From assembly GCA_037130265.1 (NCBI GenBank), contig JBAXTI010000002.1, positions 92,870-154,293 of the forward strand: a stretch of 61,424 bases of DNA. Direction: 5' to 3'. The position numbers were made by a program, and so were the translations under genes. Position 1 is the stretch's first letter; each line of letters starts with the position of its first letter. Under the pieces are notes generated by a model. The model saw nothing but the letters and a program-made list of their open reading frames with translations. It was not told the DNA's origin and made no database searches. Below are positions 9,181 through 24,624 of this stretch, piece after piece. Source of the stretch: a bacterium. GTDB lineage: Bacteria; Patescibacteriota; Minisyncoccia; Phycocordibacterales; JBBTRF01.

Positions 9181-10167
9181 ATGGATCTCCAAAAGCACAA
9201 GCAGAATCATAAGACGTCATATCTCGCAGAAAGCTGGGAGCGTTTGGACGTGGAAGAAAAAGAACTTCGTGGCATGATTGAAAAGGATGCCGGCTTCGCT
9301 GAATTGGGCGCCAAAGAACTCGAAACCATCGCTGAGCAGAAGAAGGCTCTCGAGGCACAATTGAAGCAGATCGAAGATGCCGACAAGGAGGAGGAAGAGT
9401 TTCCAAATGAAATCGTCATGGAAGTTCGAGCTGGTGCTGGTGGGGAAGAGGCGGCATTGTTTGCGCAAAAATTGGCTGAAATGTATCAGCGTTTCTGCGA
9501 GACGAGAGGTTGGTCTTTCCATCCGCTCGATGAATCTGAAAGCTCTCTTGGGGGCTTCAAAGAAGCGGCTTTTGAAGTGCGTGGCAAGGATGTATACAAA
9601 CTTCTCCGTTTTGAGACAGGTGTGCATCGTATCCAGCGTGTGCCACCCACTGAAAAGATGGGACGCGTACATACCTCGACTGCCTCCGTCGCAATTCTCC
9701 CAATGCGCAAGAAGGTCAATGTTGATATCAGCCCAGCCGATATTCATATGGAATTCTCCCGAGCCGGCGGCAAGGGTGGCCAGAACGTGAACAAGGTGGA
9801 AACCGCCGTGCGTCTCCTCCACAAGCCATCAGGTATCGATGTGCGTTGTACCAGCGAGCGTAGTCAGGCGAAGAATCGCGAGAAGGCGATGAGTATCTTG
9901 GCAGCCAAGATTGCCCGACTCCGCGAGGAAGAAGCTGCTGCCAAATACTCTGGCAACCGTTCGTCCCAGATCGGCACGGCTAGTCGCTCCGAAAAGATTC
10001 GTACTTACAACATTCTCCAGGACCGCGTCACCGACCATCGTATCAAGCAATCTTGGCACAATATCGAAGGCATCTTCCGTGGCGAAATCGACGACATTAT
10101 TCAGGCCGTCTGCGAGGCGGGAGGCGGTACCGCTCCTGCTGAAGAGGGGGAGACTGATAGCGAATAA
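9181..10167 (+). CDS. prfA: peptide chain release factor 1
   Basis: GGQ motif ([18 protein letters not shown]) and an RF1-type RVPPTE tripeptide region. The track start at 9175 is TTG; the ATG is at 9181. Confidence 0.9.
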
Positions 10168-11776: not shown

Positions 11777-12253
11777 ATGACGACCCCTTTCACAATCTTC
11801 CTCCTCTCACTCATCGCACTGATCTTTCTGATCGTGCATAAGGTGATCGAGTTGCACAAGGGTACGTCCTTGGTGTCTACAGAGATGCGCGACAGGGGTG
11901 ATGAGATCATTGTCGAGAACGTGATAGAGAAAGTGAAGCTCTTTTTGGCCAAAGGATGGCTGGCGGCACGCCGAGCGATTCTCTCGTCCCGCGCTGTCAC
12001 GCAGCGTGTCACTGTGAATGTGTTGCATACGGTGCAACGTACCACAGTGAAGCTCATCGATCGCATGAAACATGCTGGTGGTGGCCGAGGCGGGTCAGCA
12101 GGGGCAAAAAAGAAGCCTGCGGGCTCGGTATCATTTTTCCTCAAGCATGTGAGCGATGAGGCGAAGCGAGTAACAACCGAAAGTGCTGTCGCTGCCGCAG
12201 AGGCCAAAGAGGAGGCGGTTGAGGAAGCAAAGATAGAGAAAGCGGAAGTGTAG
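11777..12253 (+). CDS. hypothetical membrane-anchored protein (158 aa)
   Basis: N-terminal TM segment (FTIFLLSLIALIFLIV) and a charged Ala/Glu/Lys tail. Confidence 0.5.
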   Translation: MTTPFTIFLLSLIALIFLIVHKVIELHKGTSLVSTEMRDRGDEIIVENVIEKVKLFLAKGWLAARRAILSSRAVTQRVTVNVLHTVQRTTVKLIDRMKHAGGGRGGSAGAKKKPAGSVSFFLKHVSDEAKRVTTESAVAAAEAKEEAVEEAKIEKAEV

Positions 12254-12277
12254 GTCTCGGAAGTCTTGAAAAATAAC

Positions 12278-12353
12278 GCCACCTTAGCTCAGTTGGTAGA
12301 GCACCCGTTTTGTAAACGGGATCGCGTCAGTTCAAATCTGACAGGTGGCTCCA
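12278..12353 (+). tRNA. tRNA-Thr (anticodon UGU), CCA encoded
   Basis: Hand-folded cloverleaf. Acceptor GCCACCU/AGGUGGC; D stem GCUC/GAGC; anticodon stem CCCGU/ACGGG with loop UUUGUAA; T arm GUCAG-UUCAAAU-CUGAC; discriminator U then CCA. Confidence 0.9.
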
Positions 12354-12397
12354 AAAAAGTTGTGCCGGTAGGACTTTCGGGCTAGAATTACCGAACA

Positions 12398-13135
12398 ATG
12401 TCAGAAAGCCAAAAAACAGCGCCGAAAGGTCACCTGCACCCGATTACTCAGGTGATTCGCGAGATTCAGACTATCTTTGCGGAGATTGGTTTTGATGTGG
12501 CGGTGGGGCCGGAGCTTGAGACGGAGTTCTACAACTTCGACGCTTTGAATGTGCCGAAAAATCATCCAGCGCGTGATATGCAAGACACCTTTTGGCTCAA
12601 ACAAAAGAATGCGAAAGGGGAGAATCTGCTTTTGCGTACGCATGCAACTTCAGTGACTCTGCGCATGCTCGAGCAGCACAAGGACGATCTGGCGAAAGTA
12701 GCGCCGTTGCGACTGATTGCACCCGGCAAGGTATTTCGCAATGAAGCGACTGATGTCACTCACGAAGCGCAATTCTTTCAGCTCGATGGCGTGATGGTGG
12801 ACAAGCAGGTGTCGATGGCGGATCTCAAAAATACTCTGACATATTTCTTCAAGCGTCTGCTTGGTGACGATGTCGAACTCCGTTTCCGTCCGAGTTTCTT
12901 TCCGTTCGTTGAACCTGGCGTGGAGATCGATATTCGTTGGAAAGATAAATGGCTCGAGGTGATGGGAGCAGGCTTGCTGCACCCAAATGTGCTCACTGCC
13001 GCCGGCATCGATCCGCAGCAATGGTCGGGCTTCGCTTTCGGCGGCGGTATCGACCGCCTCGTGATGCTTCGCTATGGCATCGACGACATTCGCTCGCTGT
13101 ACACGGCGGATTTGCGGCTGGTGAATCAGTTTTAA
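12398..13135 (+). CDS. pheS: phenylalanine--tRNA ligase alpha subunit (short, catalytic core only)
   Basis: HPITQVIREI, NFDALNVPKNHPARDMQDTFW and FRPSFFPFVEPG. Only 245 aa, so the usual N-terminal extension is absent. Confidence 0.9.
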   Translation: MSESQKTAPKGHLHPITQVIREIQTIFAEIGFDVAVGPELETEFYNFDALNVPKNHPARDMQDTFWLKQKNAKGENLLLRTHATSVTLRMLEQHKDDLAKVAPLRLIAPGKVFRNEATDVTHEAQFFQLDGVMVDKQVSMADLKNTLTYFFKRLLGDDVELRFRPSFFPFVEPGVEIDIRWKDKWLEVMGAGLLHPNVLTAAGIDPQQWSGFAFGGGIDRLVMLRYGIDDIRSLYTADLRLVNQF

Positions 13136-13147
13136 TTGTTCTCGCAA

Positions 13148-13468
13148 ATGAACATCAAAGTTATCACAGATTCAATTTCTCTCAACGAGCTCAAAGAGCT
13201 TGCAAAAGAATACTACATTACCATGATCAAGGGCGTTGTTGATATTGAAAAAGAAATAGTAGCTTTTGGCGGTGAGTATCACATGGATGCAAACGTAGTT
13301 TTGCTCGAAAAAGGCCATCAGCAGGGAGACATCTGGGGATTTAACGTAGTTTTCGATCTTGATTCCGAGGACTGGATTGAATATACTTCTCTTATCAACA
13401 TCCGGCCGCTGAAAGGAAACCGAAGTATGGAAATCACTGATCGGCAATCCGTGAAAAGATCAAAATGA
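13148..13468 (+). CDS. DUF5674-like small protein, apparently frameshifted near its 3' end
   Basis: MNIKVITDSISLNELKELAKEYYITMIKGVVDIEKEIVAFGGEYHMDA..INIRPLKGNRS resembles DUF5674-type proteins (from memory). The expected C-terminus (AIREKIKMIVNAKIKNNFT) continues in another frame at 13444-13503. Confidence 0.5.
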   Translation: MNIKVITDSISLNELKELAKEYYITMIKGVVDIEKEIVAFGGEYHMDANVVLLEKGHQQGDIWGFNVVFDLDSEDWIEYTSLINIRPLKGNRSMEITDRQSVKRSK

Positions 13469-13499
13469 TCGTAAATGCAAAGATAAAAAATAATTTCAC

Positions 13500-13733
13500 A
13501 TGAACACAGAACGCACAGAACTCTTCTATATGGCGAATTTAGGGAGCGAGGTATCTCGTTATCTGGATGCTATCGCGAAGGCGGATGCGAAGCAGGCGGC
13601 GCTGGCGTGGTGTAGGATTGAGGCAATGGAAAAAAAATGCAGATTCTCCCGCTCAGACTTGGCGCTAAAAATGAGATGCGCACCATACTTGGTTTTATTG
13701 CCCATCCAACGGAGAGTGGATTGTCAATTTTAG
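13500..13733 (+). CDS. hypothetical small protein, probably disrupted at an A8 run
   Basis: The ATG overlaps the alternative-frame stop of the preceding gene (ATGA). After the A8 run at 13630-13637, a second frame stays open to 13798. Confidence 0.4.
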   Translation: MNTERTELFYMANLGSEVSRYLDAIAKADAKQAALAWCRIEAMEKKCRFSRSDLALKMRCAPYLVLLPIQRRVDCQF

Positions 13734-13863
13734 AAATGAAAAGCCAATGTTCAGGTTATTTTGAACCGTTTGCTTTGCGATTGGCGACTCAGCGATAGTC
13801 CGTAGTCAAAATGCCACAAAAGGGCCTTGCTGAAAGGCGTTTTAAGCATAGCCAGACGTGCTA

Positions 13864-13892
13864 TTGACAAAATAGCCACAGTGGTATATAAT
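13864..13892 (+). promoter_or_regulatory. consensus sigma-70-type promoter (TTGACA-17 nt-TATAAT)
   Basis: TTGACA at 13864-13869, a 17-nt spacer, TATAAT at 13887-13892. About 210 nt upstream of the DGR target gene. Confidence 0.7.
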
Positions 13893-14104
13893 AACATCAG
13901 TATCAAAACGTCGGTCTTTGACACGAAATTGCGAAAATTGCGAATTTCGCCACAGCAAAGAGCGGCTTTCAGGCGGGTGTCCGGCAGGACCTCTGCACTG
14001 AGCCTTTCTCCGCTGTGGCGAACCGACTCCGATCAGACTGACACCTTGTACGCTTTGTACGAAACAGTATTGATTCCGGAGACGCTGTAACCGCGCAAAT
14101 ACAC

Positions 14105-14800
14105 ATGAAGACATCGACCAAAGAGCAGCTCAACCAACTGCTGGCTCAGCTGCTAGTTACCGCCGACAACCGCAAAATGAGCCATGACCAGATGCAGATG
14201 GCTATCAAGGACACTGCTGGTCTGGCCGAACGCTTCCACGCGTTCATCGACGGCTACGAGGTGCAAACGACCACTCCATCGAGCATCCCCCTCGCTGCTC
14301 ACAAGGCGCGCGCCATGTCGGAGCTCTTCCGCGATGGCAACGGCGTGAAATACTACTACCGCGACGGTGATCTGGACGACTGGTTCACCGCCAACTCCCC
14401 GGAGTGTCTGGCTGGCACCGCGCGCTTCGTCGAGACACCGAAGGTGATGACGTTCAAGCATATGGCACAGTGGGTCACTGGACTCCAGTCAGAGTCCTTT
14501 GCCGACCTCTCCCGTGCCATCGTCGCTCAAAACCTCTACCTCACTCCCGAACAGTGGAACGATCAGATCGTCGCCACCCAAAAAGGCGAGGATATCCTGC
14601 TCACCAACGGCTACGCCTCCTTCGCTTTTGCGCGGACAGGCAAGAAACTCAAGGACGAGAAAGGTGGGGAATACGACGAAGTAGTCATGTTCGACGCCGA
14701 CCGCAGCGACGACGGCCGGTGGCACGCCTACGTCCACGGGCTCGGCTTCGACGGCGGGTGGGATGCCGACTTCGGGCTCCTGCTTCGCAACTCGCCCTAG
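14105..14800 (+). CDS. DGR variable (target) protein 1, 231 aa
   Basis: The last 36 codons form VR1. Paralogous to the 21734-22474 product from MSELFR.. onward. No obvious signal peptide. Confidence 0.85.
   Translation: MKTSTKEQLNQLLAQLLVTADNRKMSHDQMQMAIKDTAGLAERFHAFIDGYEVQTTTPSSIPLAAHKARAMSELFRDGNGVKYYYRDGDLDDWFTANSPECLAGTARFVETPKVMTFKHMAQWVTGLQSESFADLSRAIVAQNLYLTPEQWNDQIVATQKGEDILLTNGYASFAFARTGKKLKDEKGGEYDEVVMFDADRSDDGRWHAYVHGLGFDGGWDADFGLLLRNSP
14687..14793 (+). repeat. DGR variable repeat VR1
   Basis: Colinear with TR 15070-15176. By hand count, 16 differences all at TR adenines, plus one T-to-G difference at the 5' edge. Confidence 0.9.
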
Positions 14801-14829
14801 GGCCCTTGGACACTTTGTCCCTTCGGCCC
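14800..14829 (+). other. GC-rich nested stem-loop immediately 3' of VR1 (candidate DGR target-recognition hairpin)
   Basis: GGGCC..[GGACA-CTT-TGTCC]..GGCCC. The inner hairpin and its flanks are conserved after VR2 (22480-22505). Confidence 0.6.
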
Positions 14830-14842
14830 CTTCAAATCACTT

Positions 14843-14876
14843 CGCCCAGCATTCCGATGCTGGGCGATTCTTTTTT
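14843..14876 (+). terminator. intrinsic terminator of target gene 1
   Basis: CGCCCAGCAT-TCCG-ATGCTGGGCG followed by ATTCTTTTTT. Nearly identical copy at 22517-22550. Confidence 0.8.
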
Positions 14877-15069
14877 GTATTTTTGAACTTATTTTATATA
14901 ATCAAGCTAAGAATTTGCTGGCATGCTCGGCGAAATCTTAGTGTGGCGAATTCTGCAACATTCAAAAAAAGAAATAGTTGGTGCCTCGCTCTAGCGAGAA
15001 ACAGTCTCGGTATACAATTCAGCCCGAAGAGTATTCGATGGGCAGTGTCACAGATGGGGCGAGGTACAA

Positions 15070-15176
15070 ATGTTCTACGCCAACCGCAACGACGACGGCC
15101 GGTGGAACGCCAACGTCAACAGGCTCGACAACGACAACGAGTGGAATGCCGACAACAGGCTCCTGCTTCGCAACTC
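15070..15176 (+). repeat. DGR template repeat (TR)
   Basis: AAC-rich: ATGTTCTACGCCAACCGCAACGACGACGGCCGGTGGAACGCCAACGTCAACAGGCTCGACAACGACAACGAGTGGAATGCCGACAACAGG... Intergenic; donor-like relative to VR1 and VR2. Confidence 0.9.
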
Positions 15177-15192
15177 TTTCTTTTCTCCCGCT

Positions 15193-15537
15193 TTACCGCG
15201 GGAGTTTTTGTTCTAAGTAATTGATCCAGCCATGAAGCATTTGTCCAGCAGCGATCAATTTCTCATTCAATAGGATAAATTTTTTATCCTCGAATATTTT
15301 CATCTCCCAGCCGACAGATAAAAAGAACTTGATAAAGTCCAGATGTTCTTGAGCAGCTGCTATCCGCAATATTTTTTGTTCACCACGATAGTAAGTGGCT
15401 TGGTAAATGAGCTTTAATGTCTCGGTAAAACAGTCCTCGATCTTTGACGCGATACCGAATCGAACTGGCTTCGGTAGGTGTTCGCTATAAGCGAACCACA
15501 AAGAGTAGGTCTCTTTTAAGTGCTGGAGCACTGGCAA
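15193..15537 (-). CDS. avd: Avd-like accessory variability determinant (four-helix-bundle family), TTG start
   Basis: 114 aa, helical (..YSLWFAYSEHLPKPVRFGIASKIEDCFTETLKLIYQATY..LHGWINYLEQK). Size, position next to TR and RT, and family resemblance support the call. Encoded on the strand opposite TR and RT. Confidence 0.7.
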   Translation of the reverse strand: MPVLQHLKETYSLWFAYSEHLPKPVRFGIASKIEDCFTETLKLIYQATYYRGEQKILRIAAAQEHLDFIKFFLSVGWEMKIFEDKKFILLNEKLIAAGQMLHGWINYLEQKLPR

Positions 15538-15568
15538 AATCGTTCGGGGGGGGGGTAGACTTCTGAGG

Positions 15569-16588
15569 GTGAGAATTCAATTGGTTCATGTCTACGAAGA
15601 TATCATATCTGTCGAAAATCTGCTTCTTGCGTGGCGTGAATTTGTGAGTGGTAAGAAACAAAAGAAGGATGCGCAGGAGTTCTCGCTTCGGCTCATGGAT
15701 AACATCTTCGAGCTTCATGCGGAGTTGGCAGCTAAGACATATACTCACTCCGCTTACAAAGCATTTTCGATTTCCGATCCGAAGCCCCGCAGTATTCACA
15801 AGGCGTTGGTGCGAGACCGGCTTTTGCATCATGCTTTGTATCGAAAATTATACCCATTCTTTGACCGGACTTTTATCAGCGATTCGTATTCATGTCGGCG
15901 CTTCAAGGGTACCCATCGAGCGATCGACCGCTTCAGAGTGTTTGGGCGGAAAGTCTCGCGCAACCATACTCGCACCTGCTGGGTGCTCAAATGCGATATT
16001 CGAAAATTCTTTGCTTCCGTGGACCATGCCATTCTTCTGGATATTCTTAGAAAGTACATTGCGGATAGAGATGCTCTTTGGCTTATCGAGCGGGTGATCT
16101 TTAGTTTTCATAGCACCGCGGGAGGGAGGGGACTGCCTCTCGGCAACCTCACCTCTCAACTTCTGGTGAATGTCTATATGAATGAGTTCGATCAATTCAT
16201 GAAGCACCGACTCAAGACGAGATACTATATTCGTTATGCCGACGACTTTGTAATTTTGTCCGATCAAAAACAAGTTCTTGAGAGTACCTTGTCGGAAATT
16301 GGACATTTTTTGGTACAGCAACTACAACTTTCACTTCATCCCGACAAGGTCTCTATAAAAACACTGGCCTCAGGTGTCGATTTTCTTGGGTGGGTGCACT
16401 TTCCGCACCACAGGGTACTGCGAACCGTGACAAAGCGGCGAATGTTCAAACGGCTTGCCTCGACGGCTTCCATGGAGCCATTGTCAGCCCTTGCAACTGT
16501 TCGTTCCTACCTTGGTTTGCTCAGTCATGGAAACGCTCACTATCTCCGTGAAAAAGTCGCACAATACGAGCGGAATATGCTAAAATGA
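15569..16588 (+). CDS. DGR-type reverse transcriptase (GTG start)
   Basis: 339 aa. DIRKFFASVDH, LPLGNLTSQLLVNVYMNEFD (the IGNLTSQ-type motif diagnostic of DGR RTs) and YIRYADDFVIL (YxDD). Confidence 0.9.
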   Translation: MRIQLVHVYEDIISVENLLLAWREFVSGKKQKKDAQEFSLRLMDNIFELHAELAAKTYTHSAYKAFSISDPKPRSIHKALVRDRLLHHALYRKLYPFFDRTFISDSYSCRRFKGTHRAIDRFRVFGRKVSRNHTRTCWVLKCDIRKFFASVDHAILLDILRKYIADRDALWLIERVIFSFHSTAGGRGLPLGNLTSQLLVNVYMNEFDQFMKHRLKTRYYIRYADDFVILSDQKQVLESTLSEIGHFLVQQLQLSLHPDKVSIKTLASGVDFLGWVHFPHHRVLRTVTKRRMFKRLASTASMEPLSALATVRSYLGLLSHGNAHYLREKVAQYERNMLK

Positions 16589-16625
16589 CCGCACTACTAA
16601 ACGACAGAAAAACAGGCTTATTTCA

Positions 16626-18617
16626 ATGAAAGTCTCCCACAACTGGCTCCAATGCTATTTCGACAAGCCGCTTCCGACGGCTGAGAAGCTCGCTGAGCTT
16701 TTCACATTCGGCGCTTTTGAAGTGGAAGGGATTGAGAAGGTGCTCGGAAACGCAGCTGCCGGCGACGCAGATGTGGCGAAGGTTACCGACACCGTCATCG
16801 ACGTGAAGGTGCTACCCGATCGCGCTCACTATGCGCTTTGTCATCGAGGGGTCGCGAGCGAGATATCCGCACTTGCTGGCATCGCGCGCAAGCCGCTCAC
16901 GAAGCCGCCTTTCCTCGAGGCCTCAGCTAGGAAAGTTGAAGTAAAAAATCTCGAGCCGAAACTCTGCACTCGGTACGTCGCGCGCTATGTCGAAAATGTC
17001 ATCGTCGGCAAAACTCCCGACTGGCCACGGCTCTGGCTCGAAGCGATCGGCCAGCGCTCCATCAACACCGTCGTCGACGCTACGAACACGGTGATGTTCG
17101 ACATGGGCCAGCCACTCCATGCTTTTGATGTCGATAAAGTGCAGGGACCGATCACGATCCGCCTCGCCAAGGTCGGCGAGAAGATGACGACACTCGACAG
17201 CAGTGCTGGAGCAGGGAAGGAGATTGAATTGACTTCAGAGATGCTCGTGATTGCTGATGATGCTGGCGTGTTGGCGGTAGCCGGGGTGAAGGGTGGTTCG
17301 CGTGCGGCCGTGACCAGTGAGACCAAAAATCTCATTCTCGAAGCGGCGTGTTTCGACCCCGTTTCCGTTCGCAAGACCAGCACCAAGATCGGCATTCGCA
17401 ATGAGTCGTCGAAGCGTTTTGAAAACGAGATCACGCCGCACCTTGCACCTGACGCAATGTATTGGCTAACCGCGCTCATTTTGGAGCAATCGCCGAAAGC
17501 TGCGGATGGCAAGATTGCAGCAAAGGCCGGCCCGGTGACCGATATCCACGGCGAGCTCCCGGAAAAAGTTAAAATGGAGGTCTCTGCGAAAGATATTTCT
17601 ACCATGCTTGGTGTGCAGATTTCCGTAAGTACAGTCGTCAACCTGCTCAATCGGCTTGAGCTTGCCGCAACCGCAAAGGGCGACATCATCACCCTCACCA
17701 TTCCTCACGATCGCCTCGACCTGCGTATTCCTGCCGACATTGCCGAAGAAGTCGGCCGTCTTTACGGCTACGACAAGATTCCGTACACAGCGCCGGCAAA
17801 ACACTCACTCGTCTCTTCCAACAAAACCTTTTATTATTGCGAAAAGATCAAGAATGCTCTCATCGCTGCCGGCTTTTCTGAAGTATACAGCTACGCACTC
17901 ACCGCCAAGGGTGATTTCGAGATCACCAAACCACTCGCTGCGGACAAGGGCAAGCTCCGCACCAATCTCGCCGACGGCATGACAAAGTCGCTCGAGATGA
18001 ATGTTCGCAATGCCGACCTGCTCGGTCTCGAGACTGTCGCACTTTTTGAAGTCGGCACGGTGTTTAGTGTCGCTGCCGAAACCACATCACTTTGCCTCGC
18101 TGCACAAATGGTGAAGAAAGTGAAAGGGAAGAAGAGTGAGGATGTCCTTCGTGTGGCCATCGCTGAGTTGGAAAAGACGCTCGGCGTTGCGTTGCAGACA
18201 AAGATTTCTCCAGTGGGTACAGGTGCTCTTGCTGAAGTTGATCTCACGTCACTTATTGCCACTCTCTCCGCACCAACCTCATACGCTGACCTTGGCCTCA
18301 CCCGCGCGATCGATACAAAATACAAGCCTTTCTCTGCGTATCCGTTCATCACTCGCGACATTGCATTGTTTGTTCCTGCTGGTACCGATGAAGCCGCTGT
18401 CCGCGACACCATTGCCGATTCGCTCAACAAGATTGCAGGCGATCTCGTGGTAAAGGGGCCTGATTGTTTCGATCGATTCGAGAAAGAGGGGAAGCTCTCT
18501 CTCGCATACCGCATGATTTTTCAATCGTATGAAAAGACACTTTCCGACGAGGAAGTGAATGCACATATGACTGCGCTTCACGATAGTGTGAAGGCGAATG
18601 GGTGGACGGTGCGATAA
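16626..18617 (+). CDS. pheT: phenylalanine--tRNA ligase beta subunit
   Basis: 663 aa. MKVSHNWLQCYF.. N-terminus, a B3/B4 region and a C-terminal FDRFEKEGKLSLAYRMIFQS. Confidence 0.9.
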   Translation: MKVSHNWLQCYFDKPLPTAEKLAELFTFGAFEVEGIEKVLGNAAAGDADVAKVTDTVIDVKVLPDRAHYALCHRGVASEISALAGIARKPLTKPPFLEASARKVEVKNLEPKLCTRYVARYVENVIVGKTPDWPRLWLEAIGQRSINTVVDATNTVMFDMGQPLHAFDVDKVQGPITIRLAKVGEKMTTLDSSAGAGKEIELTSEMLVIADDAGVLAVAGVKGGSRAAVTSETKNLILEAACFDPVSVRKTSTKIGIRNESSKRFENEITPHLAPDAMYWLTALILEQSPKAADGKIAAKAGPVTDIHGELPEKVKMEVSAKDISTMLGVQISVSTVVNLLNRLELAATAKGDIITLTIPHDRLDLRIPADIAEEVGRLYGYDKIPYTAPAKHSLVSSNKTFYYCEKIKNALIAAGFSEVYSYALTAKGDFEITKPLAADKGKLRTNLADGMTKSLEMNVRNADLLGLETVALFEVGTVFSVAAETTSLCLAAQMVKKVKGKKSEDVLRVAIAELEKTLGVALQTKISPVGTGALAEVDLTSLIATLSAPTSYADLGLTRAIDTKYKPFSAYPFITRDIALFVPAGTDEAAVRDTIADSLNKIAGDLVVKGPDCFDRFEKEGKLSLAYRMIFQSYEKTLSDEEVNAHMTALHDSVKANGWTVR

Positions 18618-18642
18618 AAAACCCCGGCACACAGTGTCGGGG
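18616..18642. terminator. shared hairpin between convergent pheT and the HTH gene
   Basis: CCCCGGCAC-ACA-GTGTCGGGG flanked by A6 on the left (a U-tract on the minus strand) and a G9 run on the right. Confidence 0.6.
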
Positions 18643-18671
18643 GGGGGTGGTTCGGTGAGTGTTGATTATTT

Positions 18672-19121
18672 TCAGCGATTTCTGCCAAGTGCGGCGAGGA
18701 GCTGATCCTCAAATACTCTGCGCAGGATCTTTTCTGTGAGATAACGTCGACCTCGAACTGACCGTTCTGTCTCCCCGATCACTGTTTGGAGCTTGCTGAT
18801 ACCAGGCCTGCTTAGGACGATGAGGTTGTCTGCTTCGAGTTGACCCATCAGTATGGTGAAGGCACTGTTATCCAAAAGTGGACCTGTGTGTGGCTTGATG
18901 CCGAGAGATCTTAAGACCGAAACGGGACCATATCCTAGGGCTCGGATGAGTTGATGCGTTTTTGCAGGAGAGAGCGAGCGCTGTCCGCTCTTGGCCAGAC
19001 TTATGAGTGTGCCAGAGATACCGATCCCTTTGGCTATTTTTGCTTGAGATACACCGGGCTCGCTCAGCTTTTTTTTGAGCCAGGGCTGTATTTTGTGCCA
19101 ATCGTACCAATGTCTTCTCAT
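18672..19121 (-). CDS. helix-turn-helix (XRE-like) DNA-binding protein
   Basis: GVSQAKIAKGIGISGTLISLAKSGQRSLS is HTH-like. 149 aa. Confidence 0.5.
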   Translation of the reverse strand: MRRHWYDWHKIQPWLKKKLSEPGVSQAKIAKGIGISGTLISLAKSGQRSLSPAKTHQLIRALGYGPVSVLRSLGIKPHTGPLLDNSAFTILMGQLEADNLIVLSRPGISKLQTVIGETERSVRGRRYLTEKILRRVFEDQLLAALGRNR

Positions 19122-19200
19122 GGGGTGAATGGGTGGAAAGGACGCTGTCGAACATCATTAAATCACACTTCCAGATATTTTTCTAGGCTCGAAAAAATGA

Positions 19201-21417
<2,217 letters not shown>

Positions 21418-21535
21418 GAAGAGAATACAAAGGCATTTCTCAGAGCACGGAATAAAACCTTGCTAGGTTTTTTCCTCCTGCTCGACCCCTACGGGTCTGC
21501 GCAGAGGCTCTTCGAAATGCCTTTGTATTCTCTTC
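21418..21535 (+). repeat. nested-hairpin structured repeat, copy E
   Basis: 22-bp perfect basal stem (21418-21439 with 21514-21535). Starts at the first nt after the gyrB stop. Confidence 0.85.
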
Positions 21536-21733
21536 TCGTTACCAATGGTCGCAGCACGCGTGTTCGACTGAATGGTGTTTGACATAATTCACTATTTTGT
21601 GGCAGTATTAAAACAGGAGCTGTGGCGGACCATTCTATGGCGAGCAATGAACACGGCTTAGATAGTATGCAAAACAGTCTGTCGGCCCGATCGGTATCTG
21701 GGTTGGGACGGACGCAATTGAAAGGAAAATGGC

Positions 21734-22474
21734 ATGACGACACCTTATGTTGTCAAAAAATCAGTAGCAAAGCGCAAACCGACGCTCGATGAAGTTCTGA
21801 CCTACATGTCGCGCATCAGCGACCTCGGTCGCCGGTTTACGGAAGGCTCACTTCATCCTACCTCGGTGCTGGATACTCTCCAGTGCATGCAGGAGGGATG
21901 GGGGATAGGATCGGGGATGGAGGAAGTTCCCGCAGAGCAGGTGTCTCGAGGTCGCATTATTCCCCTCTTCGCCCACCAGCCCCGCCCGATGTCGGAGCTT
22001 TTCCGCAACGGCGATGGTGTGGAATACTCCCACCGCGACGGCGATTTCGACCGTTTGTTCACTGCCAACTCCCCGGAGTGTCTGGCTGGCACTGCTCGCT
22101 TGGTCAAAACCCCCAAGGCCATGAAGTTCAAGCAGATGGCCCAGTGGGTGACCGGACTCCAGACGGAGTCCGTCGCCGACCTCGCCCGCGCCATCGTCGC
22201 CCAGAACCTCGACCTCACCCCCGCTCAGTGGGACGATCAGATTGTCGCCACGCAAGCAGGTCAGGACATCCTCCTCACCAACACTTGGGCCAGCTTCGCC
22301 TTCGCGAAGACTGGCAAGAAGCTGAAGGATGAGCAGGGACAGGAATACGACGAAGTGGTCGTGCTCGGTGCCGACCGCAGCGGCGGCGGTCGGTGGCACG
22401 CCGACGTCGACGGGCTCGACTACGGCAGCGAGTGGGATGCCGACAGCAGGCTCCTCCTCCGCAACTCGCCCTAG
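21734..22474 (+). CDS. DGR variable (target) protein 2, 246 aa (remote target)
   Basis: Its C-terminal roughly 165 aa are paralogous to target 1. Carries VR2 and the same downstream hairpin and terminator module. Confidence 0.85.
   Translation: MTTPYVVKKSVAKRKPTLDEVLTYMSRISDLGRRFTEGSLHPTSVLDTLQCMQEGWGIGSGMEEVPAEQVSRGRIIPLFAHQPRPMSELFRNGDGVEYSHRDGDFDRLFTANSPECLAGTARLVKTPKAMKFKQMAQWVTGLQTESVADLARAIVAQNLDLTPAQWDDQIVATQAGQDILLTNTWASFAFAKTGKKLKDEQGQEYDEVVVLGADRSGGGRWHADVDGLDYGSEWDADSRLLLRNSP
22370..22467 (+). repeat. DGR variable repeat VR2
   Basis: Colinear with TR 15079-15176. By hand count, 13 differences at TR adenines and 3 elsewhere (GGC/GGT, CTG/CTC, CTT/CTC). Confidence 0.8.
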
Positions 22475-22516
22475 GGCACTTGGACACTTTGTCCCTTCGG
22501 CCCCCTCAAATCATTT

Positions 22517-22550
22517 CGCCCAGCATTCTGATGCTGGGCGATTCTTTTTT
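22517..22550 (+). terminator. intrinsic terminator of target gene 2
   Basis: CGCCCAGCAT-TCTG-ATGCTGGGCG followed by ATTCTTTTTT. Confidence 0.8.
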
Positions 22551-22587
22551 ACTCAAGACATCAGTCCAATTTGAGTGACGAATACAT

Positions 22588-22715
22588 ACGTAGAAGAAAA
22601 CAACACGTCGTTTCGAAGGGCCTCTGCGCAGACCCGTAGGGGTCGAGCAGGAGGCAAAATTCCAGAAGGAATTTATGCCGTGCCCTGAGAAACGACGTGT
22701 TGTTTTCTTCTACGT
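22588..22715 (-). repeat. nested-hairpin structured repeat, copy F (sense to the minus-strand gene that ends at 22720)
   Basis: 27-bp perfect basal stem (22588-22614 with 22689-22715). The core matches copy E as its reverse complement. Confidence 0.85.
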
Positions 22716-22719
22716 ACCT

Positions 22720-23838
22720 TTAGTTGCTCAAATTAACGTACATCTTCCCCTTAATAATATTGTTCGTCTTGTTGGTTTCCTGCACGCTGCCGATTGGGTC
22801 GACGTTGATGACGAATTCATTCTCCGTCTTCTTCAAAATACTATCGAAGCCGAGGGTAAACTGTGCGCGGTCACCAGGGTTCAAGGCAGGCTGGCTGTTC
22901 GACTGGAAGATGTATCCAGGGAAGGTAGGAAGCACAGCGGCGAAGGTCCAATCCTTTGCGGCCTTGGTGCCGAGGTTTACGATCTCAAAACGGATCGCAG
23001 CTCGCTGGTCGGGCTTCACTTCCTTTGCTGGTACGAAAGCAAGAGTCTCTTTGTTGATGTAACCGGTTTCCAAAATGTTGGCGGTCAAGTCGATGCTGCC
23101 ATTCGGGTTGCTCGTGCCCGCAGTCGAGATGCCGGTGCCTGGGATCTGCACAATCTGCGTGTTCTGGAAGCTGCCGTTGATGCCTGTGTTGCTACCAGTG
23201 TTTGAGGTGTTGGTGTTTACCGTATTGTTTGCACCAGTAGTACCAGTGTTCGTATTGGCCGCAGTCTTTACCGGAGGCTTCACTGCATCAGCACTGGTCT
23301 CGCCGGTGATAGTGATGGTTGCACTGGATCGAGTCGATGGAGAAGATTCTTCGTTGCGAGTGAAATACAAGCTGACAGGGAGGTTCACGGTCGCGCCCTT
23401 GGTTGAGTAGCCGACGAGGGCAAGAGAGTTGTCGTTGTTGAGGAAATGGAAAACGGTGTTACAGAAAATGATGTCGTTTGAACCACGACCCACGGCTTCG
23501 AGGTGGACGCCTTCGATGCACGGATAGCTGATGGTGTATGAGCCGCCAACAGGGGAGGTGCTTGAAGTGTCGAGCGCCCACTTGAGAGTGAAGGTGTCGC
23601 CAGAGCCGATGGTGTACGCGTCGCTAGAGACGACGAGTTTCTCGGCAGGGATGAAAACAGAAGAAAGCGAAACGGCTGCTGCGGCAACACCGCGAATGAT
23701 AGCAGGTGTTGCTTTCACGAGACCGAAGCTAATGACGGCCAAAATCGCAATGAGACCAACGATCGACAGGCTCTTCATAGAAGACTCGTGGATCTGCTTG
23801 ATTTTTACAATTTTTGGGTGAATTTCCTTGTTTTCCAT
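22720..23838 (-). CDS. membrane-anchored surface protein with C-terminal CARDB-like domain
   Basis: Trimmed to the ATG at 23838 (MENKEIHPKIVKI..). TM segment LSIVGLIAILAVISFGL, a Thr/Asn-rich linker, and a C-terminal IRFEIVNLGTKAAKDW..NPGDRAQFTLGF..DPIGSVQETNKTNN. Confidence 0.65.
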   Translation of the reverse strand: MENKEIHPKIVKIKQIHESSMKSLSIVGLIAILAVISFGLVKATPAIIRGVAAAAVSLSSVFIPAEKLVVSSDAYTIGSGDTFTLKWALDTSSTSPVGGSYTISYPCIEGVHLEAVGRGSNDIIFCNTVFHFLNNDNSLALVGYSTKGATVNLPVSLYFTRNEESSPSTRSSATITITGETSADAVKPPVKTAANTNTGTTGANNTVNTNTSNTGSNTGINGSFQNTQIVQIPGTGISTAGTSNPNGSIDLTANILETGYINKETLAFVPAKEVKPDQRAAIRFEIVNLGTKAAKDWTFAAVLPTFPGYIFQSNSQPALNPGDRAQFTLGFDSILKKTENEFVINVDPIGSVQETNKTNNIIKGKMYVNLSN

Positions 23839-23907
23839 AGTTGGGGCATTATATACCATAGTGTGGTACTTGTCAAGTGTCGGGCAATGCGCTAGAATGG
23901 TCGAACT

Positions 23908-24624
23908 GTGGCAAAGGAGCAGATTTCCGTGGGCAAGCACTATCTCGCGATCAGCGTGGCTATTCTCTTTTTCTTCATGCTCGGCTCTGTTTTGGGCGTT
24001 TTTGGCCTCTTGCCGCACGATATTCAGCAGGCGGTGCAGCCGAACCCGATCTCGATTTCGAGCCTATTTTCATCCTCTACGAGTCCTACCATGAATCTTC
24101 CCTCCGCTGCGGAGGCCGTTCCTGCCACAAAGGCCGAAGAGCCGGCCGTGCAATACGAGCGTGGTGTGGTGAAGGAGACCCCTCTGCATATCTCGATCCC
24201 AAAGATTGGTGTGAGTGTGGCAGTGAAGAATCCTACGAGTACGAACGCAGCTGTGCTGGACGCAGCTCTCATGGAAGGTGCGGTGCGGTATCCGACTTCT
24301 GGCTTGCTTGGCGAGTCGAAGAATGTGTTTCTTTTTGGTCACAGCGCTTATTCACGAGTGATCAAGAACCGCGCATACCACACTTTTGATGGCGTAGAGA
24401 AATTGGTAGAAGGGGATGAGGTGTATGTAGATAGTCTCGACGCGCGCTATGTCTACAAAGTCGTGCGCGTCTCGTTTTTGAAGGATGTCGACGCCTATAT
24501 CGACCTCGAAAGCGACGTGCGTATGCTCACCCTTTCCACTTGTAATGCGGTCGGAGCCAAAGATGATCGCGTCGTGGTGCAGTCTCGATTTATCAAGAAA
24601 ATGCCGATTCCGTTGGCCAACTAG
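23908..24624 (+). CDS. sortase family transpeptidase
   Basis: LFGHSAY (catalytic His region) and MLTLSTC (TLxTC Cys motif), with an N-terminal TM. Alternative start: GTG at 23929, preceded by AAGGAG. Confidence 0.8.
   Translation: MAKEQISVGKHYLAISVAILFFFMLGSVLGVFGLLPHDIQQAVQPNPISISSLFSSSTSPTMNLPSAAEAVPATKAEEPAVQYERGVVKETPLHISIPKIGVSVAVKNPTSTNAAVLDAALMEGAVRYPTSGLLGESKNVFLFGHSAYSRVIKNRAYHTFDGVEKLVEGDEVYVDSLDARYVYKVVRVSFLKDVDAYIDLESDVRMLTLSTCNAVGAKDDRVVVQSRFIKKMPIPLAN

Follow-up and report, generated by a model that had tools for sequence, protein, structure and literature searches.

A chromosomal diversity-generating retroelement with two paralogous target genes in a patescibacterium

The locus lies on the chromosome between pheS and pheT, within a stretch of 61,424 nucleotides (hereafter the window; contig JBAXTI010000002.1, positions 92,870 to 154,293) from a member of the Patescibacteria (CPR). 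All defining components of a diversity-generating retroelement (DGR) are present there and intact. The cassette consists of a target gene ending in a variable repeat (VR), a template repeat (TR), an inverted avd gene and a reverse transcriptase (RT) gene, in that order, and the same layout, VR-TR-avd(-)-RT(+), is found in 72/72 related loci having enough upstream sequence. The features of the locus are collected in Table 1.

Table 1. Features of the DGR locus, in window coordinates
Feature	Position	Strand	Remarks
Promoter-like site for target gene 1	13864-13892	+	TTGACA-17-TATAAT, 12/12 match
Target gene 1	14105-14800	+	231 aa; VR1 at C-terminal end
VR1	14687-14793	+	Codons 195-230 of target gene 1; 16 A-derived substitutions relative to TR
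GC-rich nested hairpin	14800-14829	+	Directly 3' of VR1, overlaps stop codon
Intrinsic-terminator-like hairpin and T-run	14842-14877	+	Ends target-1 transcript
Conserved non-coding leader upstream of TR	14905-15069	+	Putative 5' part of DGR RNA; small hairpin with compensatory change
Template repeat (TR)	15070-15176	+	Intergenic, non-coding; 30 adenines, 9 AAC codons and 1 AAT
TR 3' RNA module	15177-15212	+	Pyrimidine motif, 7-bp stem-loop 15185-15204, then TTTTTGTT
avd	15193-15537	-	114 aa, TTG start; stop codon in loop of TR 3' stem-loop
G10 homopolymer	15546-15555	+	Between avd and RT (31 nt intergenic), 13 nt before RT start codon
DGR reverse transcriptase	15569-16588	+	339 aa, GTG start; LPLGNLTSQ and YADD
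Target gene 2	21734-22474	+	246 aa, paralogue of target 1; VR2 at end
VR2	22361-22467	+	Differs from TR at 15 A sites and 6 other sites
Hairpin 3' of VR2	22474-22503	+	Same element as after VR1, one stem pair lost; then terminator 22516-22541

The software alignment of the TR with VR1 extends over 107 nt, is colinear with zero indels and contains 17 differences, which reproduces base for base the alignment made by hand in the preliminary description. Sixteen of these differences fall at TR adenines (9 A>G, 5 A>T and 2 A>C), and the sole non-adenine difference is a T>G at 15076. VR1 is changed at 16/30 adenine sites versus 1/77 other sites [Fisher test, p = 4.9e-10], the opposite of the absence of adenine bias that the preliminary description had set as a check. 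The 19 nt at the 3' end are shared unchanged (TR 15158-15176 and VR1 14775-14793) and the similarity stops there, as abruptly as had been reported; this invariant segment is IMH-like and encodes G-LLLRN. An independent repeat search recovers the same pair as 14677-14793 and 15060-15176. The TR is located 393 nt upstream of the RT, its construction from AAC codons was borne out by the codon count, and, counted by hand from the codons, its 28 mutable adenines in 19 codons allow about 1.7e16 protein variants with zero stop codons created.

The RT reading frame and its two motifs are present where they had been placed. The best match of the RT in the PDB is 8ub7, the 328-aa DGR RT of a Bordetella phage (E = 1.5e-41), with group II and retron RTs at 1.8e-17 or worse, so that the nearest relative is a DGR RT and not one of the group II or retron enzymes whose closeness had been the second check. 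The protein also matches the PHROG RT family phrog_1423 (E = 3e-107) and 177 phage records, Bordetella phages and ANMV-1 among them. Residues K29, F66, R74, I76, I181, G182 and Q187 are named as template or dNTP contacts in the bRT cryo-EM paper, and all are kept in the RT of the window except for I181, which is replaced by L. The avd gene is encoded on the minus strand, convergent with the TR and divergent from the RT. Its reading frame was found as first described, and three HMM libraries recognize the product as Avd: Pfam bAvd (E = 5.5e-10, 40.1 bits with a cutoff of 40), NCBIfam DivGenRetAVD (E = 2e-13, below the family cutoff) and the PHROG family "Avd protein of DGR" (E = 9.7e-9). In about 63/81 related loci a tract of G8-G12 is observed between avd and RT.

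Downstream of the promoter-like site of target gene 1, a leader of some 210 nt contains a 22-nt inverted repeat (13946-13967 and 14001-14022), and both site and leader are kept in a syntenic locus from another genome (L086). Two parts can be distinguished in the gene product, a helical N-terminal module (approximately residues 1-57) and an alpha/beta domain (60-231, about 170 aa), which is conserved and has the VR at its end. The first reading of the sequence did not include target gene 2, which lies at a distance of about 7.3 kb, or its VR2. The two proteins share 74% identity over the C-terminal 171 aa, and their N-terminal modules differ. VR2 is changed relative to the TR at 15/30 adenine sites versus 6/77 other sites (p = 4e-6) and fails to track the TR at 15073, 15165 and 15168; homing to VR2 may have been lost, or it may be confined to the centre of VR2. 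The reported lack of a signal peptide in the target holds for both proteins, as does the lack of a membrane segment, and because both features are absent the targets are probably cytoplasmic binders.

The non-coding RNA elements of the cassette are conserved better than its coding sequence. The spacer from VR to TR (14794-15075) has a mean column identity of 87% across the window, L086 and a further locus with the same cassette (L005, Ca. Taylorbacteria), mostly within the leader upstream of the TR, and the nucleotide identity of the whole cassette lies below this value at about 74%. The nested hairpin 3' of VR1 was recovered at exactly the positions first given and is a probable target-recognition hairpin or cruciform; the 106-nt stretch in which it folds has z = -5.2, a stretch that includes a terminator as well. 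In L086 the hairpin after VR1 shows a compensatory change (GGGCC/GGCCC to GGACC/GGTTC), and the one after VR2 is degraded. Among related loci, a clear hairpin after the VR is found in only 18/47. The stem-loop 3' of the TR is not registered by a plain MAFFT alignment, and we therefore used a covariance model, which finds one match per locus in 56 loci. In these, 85% of the stem-loop cells are paired versus 41-66% in slid controls, and there are 68 double-sided changes versus 10-18 in the controls. By analogy this is a probable Avd-binding stem-loop, an element that Handa et al. report after the TR in 207/278 DGRs, CPR ones included, and the whole 3' module is possibly a partial terminator.

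The named relatives all belong to the Patescibacteria, and groundwater samples account for most of the relatives; the profile search of genome contigs used an 8-sequence alignment. An A-biased TR/VR pair is found in 46 related loci. Between the window and L086, the orthologous VR1s differ at 19/32 adenine sites versus 8/75 other sites (p = 4e-7), and the TRs of the two genomes differ without adenine bias (4/32 versus 7/75). Lineage-specific non-adenine changes of the TR are copied into VR1 in each of them, at 15073 and 15165 in the window and at alignment positions 82, 83, 86 and 92 in L086, and position 15108 of the window TR is copied into both VRs. This tracking of lineage-specific TR changes by VR1 in both syntenic genomes implies that homing went on after their split, and on the strength of these sequence comparisons the copied substitutions argue for real retrohoming. 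In clusters of related targets sampled across wells and samples, the VRs are nearly identical, with only one or two substitutions, and DGR activity may therefore be rare.

The target is not an orphan protein: it has about 77-117 relatives, all of them hypothetical proteins of Patescibacteria. Neither target has a match in Pfam, NCBIfam, PADLOC or PHROGs. None of 55 family members matches Pfam at E<=0.001 (one marginal match to SLAM has E 0.004), the family and three other CPR target families have no match in the PDB by sequence and profile searches, and tblastn against phage genomes gives no match to the target. Pfam, NCBIfam and PDB searches do not place the target sequence in a family of the CLec, FGE-sulfatase or DUF1566 type. 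The AlphaFold model rests on a 55-sequence alignment (an 8-sequence alignment gave pLDDT 49) and reaches pLDDT ~96 over residues 60-228. It predicts a beta element, helices and then four strands, the last of which is encoded by the invariant segment. The variable codons occupy alternate positions of one beta-strand (207, 209 and 211), the loop that follows (214-223), and the end of the preceding strand with the loop after it (197-203), a distribution in the model that would be expected of a ligand-binding surface. Foldseek finds no match to the model at E<=0.001 in either the PDB or BFVD, and no solved DGR variable protein is among its top 50 matches. An NTF2-like/ketosteroid-isomerase fold accounts for many Foldseek matches and was rejected, the TM scores being 0.10-0.15.

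A useful comparison is AvpA from a Nanoarchaeota DGR, a protein of about 250 aa with no predictable fold from a nanosized organism (Handa et al. 2016, PMC5006420). The nearest structural neighbours of AvpA are animal C-type lectins, the closest being mammalian, and not Mtd or TvpA; its IMH encodes the last strand, beta5, and its variable residues are AAY-coded (PMC5006420). Small size, an unpredictable fold, an IMH-encoded last strand and AAY-coded variable residues are also characteristic of the targets described here. Unlike AvpA, whose VR is internal, these targets carry the VR at the very C-terminus and their variable residues begin earlier, inside a strand; no sequence relationship between them and AvpA is detectable, and AvpA is outside the top 50 Foldseek matches.

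We consider it very probable that the locus is a chromosomal DGR of the type dominant in Patescibacteria and that it works in the following way. A plus-strand RNA, with presumed ends, would comprise three parts: the leader (conserved, about 165 nt), the TR (107 nt) and the 3' stem-loop. A complex of RT and Avd would bind this RNA, by analogy with the Bordetella-phage system, whose post-TR stem-loop binds Avd. The TR RNA would then be reverse transcribed from a presumed priming site, with misincorporation opposite adenines, and the cDNA would take the place of VR1 at the 3' end of target gene 1; replacement of VR2 in the paralogous gene would be rarer or further back in time. Homing would probably be directed by the 19 invariant nucleotides at the 3' end and by the GC hairpin found after each VR. 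How active the element is today and what its targets do are likewise inferred.

The same observations can be read in other ways. The RT might come from another retroelement (a group II intron, a retron or a defence-associated RT) and the 107-nt repeat might be an ordinary partial gene duplication. The best NCBIfam model for the RT is indeed that of group II intron RT/maturase (group_II_RT_mat), and several defence RT models match too, but the scores are far below the cutoffs (144.7 bits versus 300, and 64 versus 235 for the retron model), and in the PDB the E-value for a DGR RT lies 24 orders of magnitude below those for group II RTs. Rfam finds no intron or retron RNA in 12000-23000, where a tRNA is the sole match, Avd adjoins the RT, and the A-only mismatch pattern (p = 5e-10) recurs in the 46 related loci, so that we give this explanation almost no credence. 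It is also conceivable that the DGR is a fossil whose inactivation is recent: its parts could all still be recognized, but retrohoming would no longer take place and the VR differences would be relics. Such a state would agree with the near-identical VRs of related targets from several wells and samples, with the non-A differences that VR2 has gained while lagging behind the TR, and with the degraded hairpin after VR2 in L086. It is difficult to reconcile with RT and Avd reading frames that are intact and keep the catalytic motifs, with non-A mismatches at just one of the 77 sites in VR1, with the uptake into VR1 of the TR changes particular to each of the two syntenic genomes, and with non-coding RNA elements better conserved than coding sequence; we regard inactivation as unlikely.

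For the fold of the target, the preliminary description had suggested an undescribed scaffold, and this stands to the extent that no match to a known fold is significant. The best matches, insignificant as they are, are C-type lectins in each library [3wbr_G, E 0.18, TM 0.24/0.37; a herpesvirus lectin, E 0.11], with alignments that cover 125-149 columns. Because the top match in both libraries is a lectin, and the order of secondary-structure elements and the IMH-type last strand fit, we lean with modest confidence towards a very divergent C-type-lectin-like fold as the most likely reading of the VR-bearing domain. The alternative, that the 170-aa domain has no relation to the C-type-lectin fold and represents a new DGR scaffold, seems to us rather doubtful. 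Such a scaffold would explain why a model of pLDDT ~96 has no match in the PDB or BFVD at the threshold used, why no Pfam family appears among 55 members at E<=0.001 and the PDB profile search is empty, why solved DGR variable proteins are missing from the top 50 matches, and why three helices and long strands of 12 residues are seen in the model, in contrast to compact lectin domains. It has to contend with the lectins found as best match in each library, with the agreement of element order and IMH-encoded last strand with lectin topology, and with AvpA, a proven C-type-lectin variable protein that was likewise unpredictable in silico and is nearest to a mammalian lectin. If the domain were a new scaffold, this Patescibacteria-only family would provide the first scaffold of a DGR variable protein that is not of the CLec fold, and apparently in a cytoplasmic protein.

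DGRs are strongly enriched in CPR bacteria, and no other dedicated system of protein hypermutation is known to us in prokaryotes. The ligand and the variation-bearing fold of the small domain-less CPR targets have been a standing question since 2017. Clean and complete, the locus provides an example of a DGR that has two paralogous targets and for which a syntenic sister genome is available, and the confident target model without a significant match makes the protein a good candidate for structure determination. The DGR itself is ordinary for the CPR type. By the passages on CPR DGRs in PMC5758913 (Wu et al. 2018) and PMC8144416 (Roux et al. 2021), those systems share with it a Patescibacteria host and a content of avd, TR and RT only; the order and orientation of avd and TR here are non-canonical and common to all 72 relatives. 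Their targets are described in the same passages as small, without a transmembrane or known domain, and with a C-terminal VR of unknown class; the targets here are likewise small, have no transmembrane or known domain and carry a C-terminal VR. Nothing essential is different as far as these passages go, and we infer from those of the 2018 paper that the locus corresponds to "architecture B3" (PMC5758913); the CPR set is termed "DGR clade 2" in the relevant part of Roux et al. (PMC8144416).

The DGR of Bordetella phage BPP-1 (mtd-avd-TR-brt) shares with the locus a full-length homologous RT with the template and dNTP contact residues kept, an Avd, an AAC-rich TR, A-specific mutagenesis, an invariant VR 3' segment followed by a GC hairpin, and a stem-loop immediately after the TR. 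In contrast to BPP-1, avd is inverted here and placed between TR and RT, so that a long RNA downstream of the TR would be antisense to avd; the 3' ends of TR and VR are identical and not an IMH versus IMH* pair; there are two targets, both on the chromosome and neither of them a C-type lectin of a phage tail fibre. The locus further departs from that of the phage in having a T-run behind the TR stem-loop and a poly-G tract before the RT. The T-run resembles a terminator, and if it were an efficient one the RNA would be left without the long spacer downstream that the Bordetella element requires for priming, so that the priming step may differ here. Candidate controls of DGR activity are the poly-G tract ahead of the RT and the covarying stem-loop after the TR, into which the inverted avd extends, and it is a possibility that slippage in the G8-G12 tract between avd and RT gates DGR expression in the clade. 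For the clade-wide CTTCATTTC motif, an exact search of the other loci finds no complementary upstream partner (a "cPRT-stop" duplex), and a 13-bp duplex with the motif is predicted solely for the subgroup of the window.

The template repeat (TR) and the first variable repeat (VR1), re-aligned by script, reproduce the 107-nt colinear, gap-free pair of the preliminary description, with differences at 17 positions, of which 16 are TR adenines (9 A>G, 5 A>T, 2 A>C) and the only other is a T>G at 15076. As had been described, the two match perfectly over their 3'-terminal 19 nt, directly beyond which similarity breaks off; the codon changes listed earlier are all correct. The adenine bias holds when counted by site [16 of 30 TR adenines changed in VR1 against 1 of 77 other sites, Fisher P = 4.9 × 10^-10], and an independent repeat finder returned the same pair, slightly longer at the 5' end (14677-14793 and 15060-15176). 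Counting by hand from the codons, we find 28 mutable adenines in 19 TR codons (9 AAY, 5 GAC, 2 AGG, and one each of GAG, TAC and ATG), whose substitution allows about 1.7 × 10^16 protein sequences and creates no stop codon. Scanning the window with the TR, its adenines treated as wildcards, recovered a second variable repeat, VR2, which differs from the TR at 15 adenine and 6 other sites (P = 4 × 10^-6); downstream of it stand the hairpin and terminator also seen after VR1. The gene that it ends encodes a paralogue of target 1, with 74% identity over the C-terminal 171 residues and a different N-terminus.

Coordinates of the DGR and of neighboring features in the window
Feature	Position	Strand	Remark
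tRNA-Thr (TGT)	12278-12353		directly upstream of pheS
pheS to pheT, enclosing the cassette	12398-18617		704-6700 in L086
DUF5674 gene	13136-13468		absent from L086
Promoter and leader	13864-14104		ahead of target gene 1
Target gene 1	14105-14800		N-terminal helical module, 14105-14275
VR1	14687-14793
GC-rich nested hairpin	14800-14829		3' of VR1
Terminator	14842-14867
Predicted duplex arms	14967-14980, 15169-15184		enclosing the TR
TR	15070-15176
Post-TR stem-loop	15185-15204
avd	15193-15537	-	114 aa; Avd by Pfam, NCBIfam and PHROGs
G10 tract	15546-15555		between avd and RT, 13 nt ahead of RT start
RT gene	15569-16588	+	Pfam RVT_1 match
G9 tract	18639-18647
HTH-type regulator gene	18672-19121	-
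Target gene 2	21734-22474	+	246 aa; VR2 at its end
VR2	22361-22467
CARDB-domain protein (432 aa) and sortase genes	22720-24624	- (CARDB)	adjoining target gene 2; neighborhood also kept in L086

Profile searches bear out the reading of the reverse transcriptase (RT) as that of a DGR, since it matches the PHROG RT family at 3 × 10^-107 and scores far under the cutoffs of the group II and retron RT models in NCBIfam. Among the 177 phage records that it matches are those of Bordetella phages and of the archaeal virus ANMV-1. The closest solved relative in a PDB search is 8ub7, a reverse transcriptase of 328 aa (E = 1.5 × 10^-41), against 1.8 × 10^-17 at best for group II intron and retron RTs. In the alignment with 8ub7, K29, F66, R74, I76, G182 and Q187 are conserved and I181 is replaced by L; the cryo-EM paper on bRT-Avd-RNA names K29, F66, R74, I76, I181, G182 and Q187 as contact residues of the Bordetella phage RT, and because these numbers and identities equal those in our alignment, 8ub7 is that enzyme. 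The neighboring small protein, previously called Avd-like, is recognized as Avd by Pfam, NCBIfam and PHROGs. Its gene lies on the minus strand and thus converges on the TR and diverges from the RT gene, the two start codons being 31 nt apart.

The same cassette is present in a relative from Ca. Taylorbacteria (L005; Avd 84% and RT 71% identical) and on a Hainich groundwater Patescibacteria contig (L086), where the order is pheS, target 1, TR, avd (minus strand), RT, pheT, HTH gene, gyrB and target 2. An RT scan of metagenome contigs returned more than 566 relatives, of which 80 were kept. Wherever a related locus extends far enough upstream (72 loci), avd is divergent and lies immediately upstream of RT; 46 of these 72 yielded an adenine-biased TR/VR pair whose TR stands between the VR and the avd 3' end. 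Only six related loci use the target family of the window; the rest use other small families, seven of which gave no matches in a Pfam scan. According to Wu et al. (PMC5758913), VRs of CPR (Patescibacteria) fall into unknown classes UVR1-6 or are ungrouped, and Roux et al. 2021 (PMC8144416) describe a CPR-restricted clade 2 whose targets have no recognizable domains and are predicted to be novel C-type-lectin variants. From the layout shared with its relatives and from these descriptions, the element therefore appears to belong to the CPR-type DGRs already in the literature, and for its phylum it is an ordinary system.

The position between pheS and pheT is common to the window and L086. The small genes nearby differ: the DUF5674 gene and a 77-aa ORF of the window are both absent from L086, which has a DUF5069 gene after RT. 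In L005 the target gene is apparently split at its 5' end (9261-10025): its first codons and leader lie at 9261-9341, and the rest of the gene follows only after an ORF of 185 aa (9468-10025) that has a CxxC motif, gives no Pfam match and may be an insertion element.

To judge activity, we compared the syntenic genomes of the window and L086. The orthologous VR1s differ at 19 of 32 adenine sites and 8 of 75 other sites (P = 4 × 10^-7), and the orthologous VR2s at 12 of 32 and 8 of 75 (P = 0.002), against 4 of 32 and 7 of 75 for the two TRs, which is not significant. Non-adenine substitutions specific to the TR of one lineage are present in the VR1 of that lineage (T15073 and G15165 in the window and, in L086, four positions within the 3'-most third of the repeat), as copying from TR to VR would predict. 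VR2 has been homed at some point but is less up to date than VR1, because the lineage-specific edge changes are absent from it, yet at position 15108 both VRs match their own TR in each genome. Activity is probably infrequent, since VRs hardly vary among the cluster members of related targets recovered from different samples. Overall, the element is a genuine and complete CPR-type DGR with two targets and is probably still active. The TR of L086 ends in CGCTATTC and both its VRs in CGCAACTC (2862-2868 vs 2481-2487), an IMH/IMH*-like distinction without counterpart in the window.

The GC-rich nested hairpin reported 3' of VR1 lies exactly where it had been placed, is followed by a terminator, and carries a compensatory change in L086. 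A clear hairpin follows the VR in only 18 of 47 related loci, in agreement with Wu et al. (PMC5758913). Many of the 45-nt flanks downstream of the VRs (L005 to L085) have repeated CTTGG or CCTTGGA-like motifs, which could serve as a target-recognition signal specific to the clade. Target gene 1 is preceded by a sigma-70 promoter that fits the consensus perfectly and by a leader of ~210 nt containing a 22-nt inverted repeat, all conserved in L086; the repeat could act as an operator or form a leader structure, and its 9-mer TGTGGCGAA recurs at 14942, upstream of the TR, and at 16772, in pheT.

In nearly every related locus the TR ends in CGCAACTC and is followed directly by a pyrimidine motif (consensus TCTTCATTTCTC), a GC-rich stem-loop of 7-12 bp and then GTTTTGTTTT. 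A covariance model of this stem-loop gave exactly one match per locus in 56 loci, 14 of them outside its building set; 85% of cells pair, against 41-66% with the partner slid, and double-sided changes number 68 against 10-18 in controls. In the window the loop contains the avd stop codon, and the opposite strand encodes EQKLPR, the last residues of Avd. According to Handa et al., the stem-loop that directly follows the TR of the Bordetella element binds the Avd pentamer, and 207 of 278 DGRs, among them CPR ones, are predicted to have such a stem-loop; by analogy, we take the stem-loop here to be the same element. The VR-to-TR spacer has a mean column identity of 87% in three genomes, mostly in a leader from ~14905 to 15069, exceeding the coding sequence (about 74%), and a small hairpin in this conserved region has a compensatory change. 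Folding 14905-15215 predicts a 13-bp duplex of AAAAGAAAUAGUUG upstream with CAACUCUUUCUUUU at the TR 3' end (z = -2.7), resembling the TR-enclosing 'cPRT stop' duplex of the Bordetella DGR RNA. Its upstream strand is invariant in the three genomes, and no confirmation of the pairing came from more distant loci of the clade.

The most conserved feature of the very short avd-RT spacer is a G tract. In about 63 of 81 related loci carrying RT, a tract of G8-G12 occupies this position (3236-3245 in L086, 11416-11425 in L005), with G10 commonest and usually 13 nt before the RT start. Locus L006 has (GT)n instead, and two otherwise identical elements (L037 and L039) differ by one G. Such runs are nearly absent elsewhere in the window, the only other of at least 8 being the G9 between the convergent ends of pheT and the HTH-type regulator gene. 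Our literature search found no report of a DGR linked to such a tract, which could be a slippage switch, a ribosome-binding or translation element, or an RNA element.

For the target protein, the preliminary description could name no fold, and this stands: we found no match in Pfam, NCBIfam, PADLOC, PHROG or PDB sequences, and Foldseek searches of the model against PDB and BFVD gave nothing significant (best E 0.18 and 0.11). An exhaustive search found 77 representative relatives and a profile search 117 clusters, the latter almost all about 200-260 aa, all named 'hypothetical protein' at source, with every named organism from a Patescibacteria lineage and no fused domains. Among 55 aligned members, Pfam gave nothing at E ≤ 0.001 and one marginal SLAM match (E 0.004). 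The alignment has invariant scaffold residues W206, W219 and N229 and the C-terminal consensus RLLLRN, and its variable columns coincide with the AAC positions of the TR. An AlphaFold model from this alignment (pLDDT about 96 for residues 60-228) has a strand (104-110), three helices, and strands at 172-183, 189-200, 206-212 and 224-228. The variable codons (197-203, alternate strand positions 207/209/211, loop 214-223, and 224) together look like one surface.

The earlier suggestion of an undescribed scaffold would fit the lack of significant matches, but a close precedent exists in AvpA (PMC5006420), whose fold was unpredictable in silico, whose nearest neighbor is a mammalian lectin and whose last strand is IMH-encoded. 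Because of this precedent we lean, with modest confidence, toward a very divergent lectin-like fold for the VR-bearing domain, and consider a new scaffold a less likely but live alternative. The top Foldseek match in each library is a C-type lectin over 125-149 columns, at scores that are not significant.

Residues 1-57 make up a module of their own, which is also found joined to a C-terminal subfamily that is related but distinct. This helical module (MKTSTxxQLNQLLAQLL...) is also present in P0020, a protein whose VR-type C-terminal domain is of a different subfamily (ending ...RVFSSN). Modules appear to be shuffled, and target 2 carries yet another N-terminus.
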